Sequence record: PV874203.1
Direction: 5' to 3' (one strand)
From: a phage
DNA: 64,000 nucleotides
Below, piece by piece: positions 21,952-23,295 of this stretch. Position 1 is the stretch's first letter. Each line of letters begins with the position of its first letter. The notes below the pieces were generated by a model that worked only from the letters and a program-made list of their open reading frames with translations, was not told the DNA's origin and did no database searches. The position numbers and the translations under genes are program-made.

Positions 21952-23295
21952 TTAACGAATGTTTTGTGAATTTAACAGATGGTCTAATTCCCCACCAACC
22001 TGAGGCTCTAATACTTCAGGGTTGTTGTCAACAAATCTATCAGCGAGATTGCGGCTGACGGTCTCAGCTAACTCACCATGAGAAGGGATATCAAGATCAC
22101 CGACAGTGGGACTCTGAGCAGATGCTTCATCAGTCCATATAACACGAGCAGCTTGGTCAATACCACCAACAGCAAAACCCTGACCAGAGAACTGGTGACG
22201 GCTAGCAGTCAAACCATTTGACAGACCACTAGAACGTCTAGACAACCACCGATCAAACGAATCGCTGGTAACACCAAGAGCCTCTTCAAAAGATGTTCTA
22301 CGAGTAGGGCTTTCTCTTCGTGCCTCTTGTGCTCGACGTCTTGCAGGTACTGCAAACAAACCTTCAATAGCATTGTGTCGGTTAGGTTCTTCTTCCCGAC
22401 CAAGCAGATCACCACCCGTATTGGTTGTTAAGTCTGTCAACCCTTCAGACCAATACGCATGAACCCGATCAGAGCCGTTAAGACTCGACATTAACTGAAT
22501 CTCTTCATAAGGTATACCAAAGAATCGACTCATATCTCGGTCAACACAATACTGAGCACTTGTTGTATCCTCAATAAGAGCAACCTGACCCCGTTCGTTG
22601 ACCAGATGACTGATCGGTTGAGGTGTAGGAAGGTATCGAGTTTGGGCCATGTATTGATGTGCAACTGCTGGAGATGAAAATCTCAATACCTGAGAATTAG
22701 GCCATTTCTTGTGAACATATCTGATTTCACGACTAGAAACAACAACAGGGCAAGGGGCGGTCATCGCCAAATATCCATGAGAAGTCATGAATAGGTTGTC
22801 AAGAGTCATCGCACCACGGCACATCATAGGGAAATTATCCATGACTTCTTCAATAGAAGTAGGATAGTTAAACATGAATTGGATTCGGGTTCCATTCCAC
22901 TGAAACTCAATAATATCAGTGAATGTTAGTCGAGAATTACCAGCATAGGGTTCGTCTGTAGCTTCAGCAAGAAGAGATGCATGCTCAATACCTTGTGACT
23001 CAAGCCACTCTTTCACATTGCTCTCAATCTCACGCCCAAGATCTTGCCACTGTTCGTGACGGATGAAAGTGTTTTGTGTTCTTGGTGTTTGCCCTCTGAC
23101 GATAAAGATATCAATGTCATGAGGTGCTATGTTATTAAGAACAGCATCACGAACAGCCCCACCAGTAATGATGGGACAGATACCGTCTGGAACCAAGTTG
23201 TTGTTAATCAACTGTTCAATGAAATGACGACCAACAGTGATATCGGGTTGTTGAGCAACCTTATCTTCAATTTGGTTAATCGGGATAACAATCAT
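21952..23295 (-). CDS. Pol-beta superfamily nucleotidyltransferase (CCA-adding enzyme / poly(A) polymerase head-domain-like)
   Basis: GGAVRD ... DIDIF motif near the N-terminus. Start set at internal ATG 23295 (TAAAATG junction with upstream gene); the ORF could extend to 23352. Confidence 0.5.
   Translation of the reverse strand: MIVIPINQIEDKVAQQPDITVGRHFIEQLINNNLVPDGICPIITGGAVRDAVLNNIAPHDIDIFIVRGQTPRTQNTFIRHEQWQDLGREIESNVKEWLESQGIEHASLLAEATDEPYAGNSRLTFTDIIEFQWNGTRIQFMFNYPTSIEEVMDNFPMMCRGAMTLDNLFMTSHGYLAMTAPCPVVVSSREIRYVHKKWPNSQVLRFSSPAVAHQYMAQTRYLPTPQPISHLVNERGQVALIEDTTSAQYCVDRDMSRFFGIPYEEIQLMSSLNGSDRVHAYWSEGLTDLTTNTGGDLLGREEEPNRHNAIEGLFAVPARRRAQEARRESPTRRTSFEEALGVTSDSFDRWLSRRSSGLSNGLTASRHQFSGQGFAVGGIDQAARVIWTDEASAQSPTVGDLDIPSHGELAETVSRNLADRFVDNNPEVLEPQVGGELDHLLNSQNIR

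Follow-up and report, generated by a model that had tools for sequence, protein, structure and literature searches.

Class II tRNA nucleotidyltransferases and poly(A) polymerase I (PAP I) share a head fold and a motif A of the form GGxVRD...DxD, and every class II enzyme characterised so far works on RNA 3′ ends. Among phage proteins, the 400-amino-acid (aa) Gad2, which has a predicted nucleotidyltransferase domain, has been described as an inhibitor of the Gabija defence system: its knockout renders Bacillus phage SPbetaL7 sensitive to Gabija, and a Brevibacillus homologue blocks Gabija (bioRxiv 10.1101/2023.05.01.538930). The mechanism of Gad2 was still unknown as of February 2026 (PMC12904381). 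Here we analyse a nucleotidyltransferase gene that occupies positions 21952–23295, on the minus strand, of a 64,000-nucleotide stretch of phage DNA (sequence record PV874203.1; hereafter the window). The source is a phiEco32-like podophage (Kuravirus, Gordonclarkvirinae), and the encoded 447-aa protein is the orthologue of phiEco32 gp73. Judged from its sequence and predicted structure, the gp73 family appears to be a phage-specific and strongly diverged offshoot of the class II (CCA-adding/poly(A) polymerase) enzymes, with Gad2 as its longest-aligning characterised protein. Our preferred, still tentative, reading is that it is a Gad2-like nucleotidyltransferase acting in counter-defence.

A class II head without the tRNA-handling parts

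The original prediction took a GGAVRD...DIDIF signature in this open reading frame (ORF) as the hallmark of class II enzymes, and both elements are indeed encoded there on the minus strand, at aa 45–50 and aa 60–64. A six-frame translation of the window contains the pattern GG.[VIL]RD.{5,16}D.D a single time, and 200 shuffled windows do not contain it at all. An alignment of 26 family sequences, which underlies all conservation and motif counts given here and also served as AlphaFold2 input, is invariant at G45, G46, R49, D50, D60, D62, F64, Y117, I128, Q139, P156, Y193 and K197, and always acidic at E/D99, D/E127 and D/E190. The six residues from G45 to D62 stay invariant among members down to 24% identity.

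AlphaFold2 modelled aa 1–290 confidently, with a predicted local distance difference test score (pLDDT) of at least 90 for 217 residues. The head contains a long inserted helix (aa 80–100) and a β-hairpin (aa 125–146). It lies in a class II fold context and not in a different one, since the first 41 matches in a Foldseek search of the PDB were all class II tRNA nucleotidyltransferases or PAP I; the best structural matches, which share both the head fold and motif A, were PDB 1miv, 1ou5, 3h37, 4wby and 3aql. A bacterial stand-alone CCA-enzyme head without a tail, Streptococcus pneumoniae NP_344798.1 (PDB 2la3), obtained a lower structural score than the full CCA enzymes. At the sequence level, the only match of the family profile among PDB sequences was a CCA-adding enzyme (E 0.002), and an hhalign comparison with five class II sequences gave Prob 88% and E 2.9e-6, confined to aa 34–126. 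In the proposed Pfam check for a PolyA_pol head (PF01743), the window protein scored 19.0 bits (E 0.0018), below the gathering cut-off of 23 bits, and across the family the domain was seen only below threshold (18 of 26 members, best E 2.5e-4).

Beyond the head, the resemblance to class II enzymes stops. These enzymes have flexible-loop/RRD, spring and EDxxR motifs, whereas the window protein has none of them. None of the 26 family members has motif B (RRD), which recognises the ribose, and one of the 26 has motif D (EDxxR), the amino-acid template for choosing CTP or ATP. The profile alignment ends after the head, with an hhalign Prob below 1% for aa 120–215 against the class II neck, and neither Pfam nor the AlphaFold2 model of the window protein revealed body or tail RNA-binding domains. 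The window protein further differs from class II enzymes in its extra head helix, in a Gln at the putative third-carboxylate position and in being acidic overall (net charge −21 for the whole protein and −10 for the head), an acidity that holds across the family. We also considered 'SIEEVMDNFPMMCR' as a motif B and 'RDxxYxxKK' as a motif D, and rejected both at a segment profile alignment Prob below 1%; this assignment survives only as a topological suggestion, with indirect support from the alignment of Gad2 to class II enzymes. The gp73 family has kept the NTP-binding and metal-binding head (GGxxRD, DxD) and has lost the base-templating motifs together with the body and tail that measure tRNA; strictly speaking, its protein is probably no CCA-adding enzyme.

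The active site itself also seems to be altered. Q139 aligns with the invariant D134 of the small nucleotidyltransferases of Autographiviridae and with a conserved Gln of Gad2, and that Gln aligns, by profile, with E79, the third carboxylate of the Bacillus stearothermophilus CCA-adding enzyme. By this chain of profile alignments, as distinct from three-dimensional coordinates, Q139 would occupy the position of the third catalytic carboxylate. Two observations count against this assignment: direct alignment to class II enzymes puts the variable E104 there instead, at low confidence, and E/D99, D/E127 or D/E190 could complete the metal site in place of Q139. We therefore softened a reading in which the third carboxylate is simply missing, because these three other positions are always acidic.

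Gad2 aligns across the head and the following helical region

No Gad2 structure has been deposited, and our comparison set consisted of nine Gad2 homologues from Yirmiya et al. (Supplementary Table 10). Aligned with hhalign, the gp73 family matched these nine with Prob 88–90% and E 2–3e-6 over 205–220 columns (aa 21–285), a longer span than the 100–133 columns shared with the Autographiviridae proteins or the 82 shared with class II enzymes. A hidden Markov model (HMM) of Gad2 matched every one of the 26 family sequences, with a median score of 14.6 bits and a best score of 26.8 bits, compared with 8.2 bits for class II enzymes and at most 2.9 bits for true decoys. A precomputed Pfam tag, PF26128 'Gad2 (faint)', is attached to 30 of 44 gp73 orthologues. 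These alignments point to a weak but consistent homology across the head and the next helical region.

Gad2 and the gp73 family are also built alike. Both are phage-borne and about 400 aa long, with core-only forms of roughly 210–280 aa and extended forms of 400–480 aa that carry variable C-terminal extensions. Gad2 and the window protein share AGG...(N/H)DxDxxF and the Gln at the putative third-carboxylate position; most Gad2 homologues have this Gln in a strand of the form hQhI that aligns with Q139, and one has Glu. From the Gad2 signature AGGxxxS, NDxDxYF, hQhI, FDFTxxMGA and YPxxSxxRxxKY, the GG, DxDxF and Gln recur in the family. GGAVRD of the window protein stands against GGxITS in most Gad2 sequences, and the YP..S..R..KY segment of Gad2 corresponds only loosely to RDxxYxxKKxP of the gp73 family.

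Gad2-type genes occur in several settings. A homologue in a Streptococcus phage lies between exonuclease and SSB genes. In Klebsiella phage KpS8 (Vequintavirinae), a 485-aa homologue directly follows an array of 11 or more tRNA genes together with a gene for endonuclease VII, which may hint at a link between some Gad2-type nucleotidyltransferases and tRNA biology. A Pseudomonas phage nucleotidyltransferase that adjoins a primase/helicase is reported to be annotated as Gad2 in related phages and to be cytotoxic when overexpressed. One further candidate was discarded: the 79-kb record 'Escherichia phage 18-1-2', which matches Gad2 and looks like a Kuravirus, is in fact a partial Vequintavirinae genome.

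Besides an orthologue, the nearest viral structures were 186–203-aa 'PolyA_pol head' proteins of Autographiviridae, a group (phiAS7 gp03, PS3, PM16, KF1 and PP1; PHROG 1614) whose members are 180–203 aa long and gave template modelling (TM) scores of 0.54–0.59 on the target in a Foldseek search of BFVD. The gp73 family aligns with them by hhalign at Prob 93% and E 2–3e-7 (PHROG 1614, E=1.8e-8), and a tblastn search with the phiAS7 protein matched 177 phage records. These small proteins are tailless and retain D134 (in hDhL) as well as FDCxxN, the counterpart of class II RRDFTINA. In the gp73 family the corresponding Asp positions are taken by the invariant Q139 and P156, and the D,D,D triad and FDCxxN are absent. 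The small gene lies zero to two genes downstream of that for DNA polymerase in PS3, PM16, KF1 and PP1 (directly after it in PS3 and PM16), and between the ligase and polymerase genes in phiAS7. Metallophosphoesterase and kinase genes accompany the small nucleotidyltransferases of several Autographiviridae.

A family-specific second domain and a disordered tail

The original prediction had left some 350 residues behind the motif unassigned and had proposed structure prediction of the C-terminal region. The prediction divides that region in two: the head reaches to about aa 147 and is followed by a confidently folded second domain at aa 148–290, so that the earlier description holds only in part; aa 291–447 alone are predicted to be disordered. 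The second domain holds the invariant P156, Y193 and K197 and the always-acidic D/E190; it had no sequence match in Pfam, PDB or NCBIfam and could be aligned solely with the region that follows the head in Gad2.

Near the end of this domain, the aromatic motif at aa 281–287 is retained throughout the family, even in members of 278 aa, in which it lies near the C terminus. Among orthologues it forms an island of 93% identity inside a stretch of low pLDDT, and it may serve as a docking motif. The tail comprises a basic Arg/Ser patch (aa 311–375, net +4) and an acidic end (aa 376–447, net −9), with short helices predicted at aa 344–352 and aa 406–429 and the remainder predicted to be disordered. 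It contains the bulk of the divergence between orthologues and is missing or different in distant members, in keeping with a family-wide conservation that is limited to the first 210–290 residues. The lost class II parts have been replaced by this private 140-aa domain, the short aromatic motif and the rapidly evolving tail.

A fast-evolving gene in a conserved replication block

The window gene belongs to a conserved gene block (Table 1). Bases 21000–25000 are 94% identical to Escherichia phage Paul and had matches in 99 phage records, almost all of E. coli or Shigella origin. The protein shares 78.9% aa identity with gp73 and 92.6% with its Paul counterpart, and PHROG 12715 ('nucleotidyltransferase') gave a full-length profile match (E=1.5e-234 over aa 1–433). 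A longer reading from a GTG at 23352 (466 aa) was rejected because it overlaps the upstream gene by 56 nt and annotated orthologues begin at the ATG.

RefSeq labels the gp73 orthologues of Kuravirus, Nieuwekanaalvirus and Suseptimavirus 'nucleotidyltransferase'. The gene and its CCA-enzyme-like motif are already part of the public annotation, and the family is uncharacterised. Our literature search found no functional study of gp73, of the small Autographiviridae nucleotidyltransferases or of the Gad2 mechanism, and the experimental trace of the gp73 family is one peptide in SU10 proteomics. Searches for known functions with the protein sequence gave no matches in NCBIfam or PADLOC, and phmmer against PDB sequences returned only a chance match to a peroxidase.

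Table 1 Features of the nucleotidyltransferase gene, its neighbours and the tRNA gene in the window
Feature	Position	Strand	Details and basis
Nucleotidyltransferase CDS	21952..23295	(−)	447 aa plus stop; ATG start, TAA stop; ORF list and sequence
Nucleotidyltransferase head, to about aa 147	22855..23295	(−)	N-terminal helix, GG..RD strand-helix, DxD strand, insert helix, hairpin
GGAVRD, aa 45–50, NTP-binding part of motif A	23146..23163	(−)	G45, G46, R49 and D50 invariant, 26/26
DIDIF, aa 60–64, catalytic aspartates D60 and D62 plus F64	23104..23118	(−)	All invariant, 26/26
Q139, invariant Gln in second hairpin strand 'IQFM'	22879..22881	(−)	Q in 26/26 family members
Second, family-specific α/β-helical domain, aa 148–290	22426..22854	(−)	pLDDT 78–97
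'YWSEGLT', aa 281–287, aromatic motif [NS][WYF][ST]xG[LR]	22435..22455	(−)	Alignment, column counts
Disordered, fast-diverging tail, aa 291–447	21955..22425	(−)	AlphaFold2 prediction and orthologue comparison
3′–5′ exonuclease subunit of split family-A DNA polymerase (phiEco32 gp74)	23297..23851	(−)	Pfam DNA_pol_A_exo1 and orthologue annotation
dCTP deaminase, downstream neighbour (phiEco32 gp72)	21406..21939	(−)	Pfam DCD, E=3.6e-34
Primase/helicase (phiEco32 gp75), first gene of the conserved block	23845..25635	(−)	Orthologue annotation and synteny
tRNA-Arg(TCT), sole tRNA gene	39587..39662	(−)	3′ CCA encoded in DNA; discriminator A, then CCA

The order primase/helicase, exonuclease subunit, nucleotidyltransferase, dCTP deaminase recurs in Paul, phiEco32, EP335 (Nieuwekanaalvirus) and three metagenomic relatives, and the gp73 orthologues occupy the same slot between the exonuclease subunit and the dCTP deaminase. 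The gene is a fixed member of the Gordonclarkvirinae replication block. It is also the fastest-evolving gene of that block. Compared with phiEco32, the nucleotidyltransferase is 79% identical, whereas the primase/helicase is 99.8%, the dCTP deaminase 98.9%, the polymerase 98.4% and the exonuclease subunit 94.6% identical; in distant relatives the corresponding values are 29–32% for the nucleotidyltransferase (first ~210 aa only), 77–78% for the primase/helicase, 75–80% for the dCTP deaminase and 56–58% for the exonuclease subunit. Orthologues are 75–93% identical to the window protein within Kuravirus and 32–38% identical over aa 1–264 in other genera, and the window copy differs from them mainly in the disordered tail. 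Such rapid divergence could be the signature of an arms race.

Among 1.84 billion representative proteins, phmmer found 31 at E ≤0.001, all of the family and 27 of them beyond two clusters at 85% identity to the query, and a profile search with a word index added another four. Members judged full-length measure 274–482 aa, and all those for which genomic context was examined lie on phage genomes or phage-like contigs.

Counter-defence as a proposed function

From the putative kinship with Gad2, including the unusual Gln, we infer a role in counter-defence, exerted by transferring nucleotides to the ends of nucleic acids or to a nucleotide. The protein is predicted to be an active catalyst with an altered metal site, Gln standing at the third-carboxylate position as in Gad2, and its role would be counter-defence rather than housekeeping. 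Recruited by its tail or the putative docking motif, it would most plausibly attach nucleotides without a template, either to the 3′-OH of a nucleic acid from phage or host or to a nucleotide. The outcome would be the blinding of a Gabija/OLD-type nuclease system that detects DNA ends or monitors nucleotide levels; in the current view, Gabija acts at the ends of phage DNA while RecBCD is blocked. Reports that Gordonclarkvirinae withstand restriction and other defences to an unusual degree (PMC11990801) would be in keeping with such a role.

Several observations weigh against this proposal, which we hold tentatively, as possible rather than probable. The Gad2 HMM gives only 7.0 bits on the window's own protein, making the link remote, and the hhalign probabilities for Gad2, class II enzymes and Autographiviridae proteins are similar (88–94%), so that the Gad2 link is statistically no stronger than the others. 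The PF26128 tag, used here with its precomputed score, is graded 'faint' only. The window protein has FPMMCR, with the invariant P156, where Gad2 has FDFTVCMGA, and no alignment to the Gad2 C-terminal domain (about aa 230–400) extends past approximately aa 285, where the gp73 protein has a predicted disordered tail instead. It is acidic and has no obvious nucleic-acid-binding surface besides a small basic patch. Gabija was not among the systems assayed on Gordonclarkvirinae in the literature that we searched, nor did that search yield a paper linking the two. Finally, anti-defence genes usually lie in variable accessory loci, as Gad2 does, whereas this gene is core and strictly syntenic, a position no less compatible with a housekeeping function, whether in replication or in nucleotide metabolism.

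Alternative functions

A replication-linked or DNA-modifying role is the alternative that fares best, although we consider it unlikely: together with the split polymerase and the dCTP deaminase, the enzyme would modify phage DNA, its ends or the dNTP pool. The BASEL authors drew attention to the fact that dCTP deaminase is paired with the nucleotidyltransferase and speculated that DNA modification lies behind the strong restriction resistance of Gordonclarkvirinae, which this alternative would account for (PMC11990801). Strict conservation of the replication block extends to relatives whose nucleotidyltransferase is only 29% identical. A single base separates the stop codon of the gp74-like gene from the nucleotidyltransferase ATG, a spacing compatible with translational coupling. 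The small relatives lie beside the DNA polymerase in four Autographiviridae genera and are flanked by ligase and polymerase in phiAS7, and RRD, the reader of the ribose 2′-OH, is absent. However, the use of DNA or dNTPs is not known from any class II relative, and uracil-containing DNA is unlikely because the phage encodes ThyX. The podophage groups concerned may have inherited their replication modules from a common ancestor, in which case the recurring adjacency may go back to one past event. For a core replication enzyme, moreover, divergence about three times faster than that of the neighbouring genes would be unexpected. The alternative overlaps with the counter-defence reading if chemistry at DNA ends serves counter-defence.

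Repair or maturation of tRNA 3′ ends, one of the roles that the original prediction had suggested for a phage carrying a tRNA gene, fares worse, and we regard it as quite improbable. By restoring C, C or A on tRNAs that host nucleases have trimmed, the enzyme would sustain translation during infection. In its favour, the head is most similar to class II enzymes, all of which, where characterised, act on RNA 3′ ends; tRNA-targeting defences are common; the KpS8 homologue directly follows a tRNA array; and OLD-family nucleases, the family that includes GajA, are reported to be able to cleave tRNA (PMC12445682). Against it stand the absence of RRD and of a tRNA-holding body and tail, the near-absence of EDxxR and the acidity of the protein. 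The only tRNA gene of the phage, located in the early region at a distance of 16 kb from the nucleotidyltransferase gene, already encodes its CCA, and E. coli owns a Cca enzyme. The complete genome of Aeromonas phage phiAS7 has a related small nucleotidyltransferase and no tRNA gene, and neither an RNA ligase nor a polynucleotide kinase is annotated in the close relative Paul. The fast divergence of the gene is also unlike that of conserved CCA enzymes.

We give still less weight to a non-catalytic pseudoenzyme, a nucleotide-binding or scaffold protein of the replisome that would have kept NTP binding and lost transfer. The invariant Gln in place of the third carboxylate, the acidic surface, and a short aromatic motif and disordered tail suggestive of protein docking would suit such a protein. 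But pseudo-nucleotidyltransferases usually lose the DxD motif, and here the DxD aspartates and GG..RD are strictly invariant in 26 sequences, down to 24% identity, which argues for chemistry; Gad2, moreover, which has the Gln too, counters Gabija in vivo, an activity that may depend on catalysis. Equally doubtful is PAP I-like tailing, in which RNA bound through the Arg/Ser-rich tail would receive untemplated additions, on host or phage transcripts, for instance speeding host RNA decay and feeding nucleotide pools.

Other features of the genome

Just upstream of the replication block, the minus strand at 25855–35237 carries a phiEco32-type cluster encoding a gamma-glutamyl cyclotransferase, an ATP-grasp enzyme, a glutamine amidotransferase, an amidoligase and a COOH-NH2 ligase, and this cluster may be connected with a metabolite or modification of peptide-like nature. 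Further phage genes (window 9818–10321 (−) and the annotation of Paul) code for a calcineurin-like metallophosphoesterase, a macro-domain (Appr-1-p processing) protein, a dNMP kinase and a 5′–3′ exonuclease. The ThyX gene (18163–18819 (−)) encodes a product with 79% identity to its phiEco32 counterpart, whereas most neighbours are at 98–99%, a difference suggesting that the gene may have been acquired by mosaic exchange.

An inserted HNH_3 homing-endonuclease ORF (19909–20403 (−), 164 aa, GTG start) separates the gp68-like gene (20400–20726) from a Dps/ferritin-like DNA-binding gene (19353–19916); in phiEco32 and Paul these two genes are direct neighbours, without an HNH gene. In a region that holds the ORFs 52979–53554 (+) and 53499–54893 (+), a group I intron (Rfam RF00028, 74.6 bits; 52734–53006 (+)) is followed by an overlapping GIY-YIG homing-endonuclease ORF; the pair is situated either directly upstream of the 5′ part of the terminase large-subunit gene or inside it, suggesting that the terminase gene is interrupted by the intron.

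Discussion

The gp73 family offers a compact and experimentally accessible relative both of the class II enzymes, stripped of their tRNA-handling parts, and of Gad2. Its gene is fixed in the replication module of a defence-resistant group of phages, yet evolves far faster than its neighbours.

We think a more specific form of the counter-defence proposal rather unlikely. As a Gad2-related enzyme of the core genome, the protein would be recruited to the replisome through its aromatic motif and tail and would make untemplated additions at 3′ ends or nicks of the phage DNA, or a nucleotide product, thereby blinding nucleases that sense ends or nucleotides, among them Gabija, other OLD-family systems and possibly restriction enzymes. 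If true, this would explain the defence resistance of Gordonclarkvirinae and reveal the mechanism of Gad2.

The family provides a tractable route to the mechanism of Gad2 and to the defence resistance of Gordonclarkvirinae. Work on it could show whether such enzymes protect the ends of phage DNA or RNA, and could help to choose or engineer therapeutic E. coli phages.

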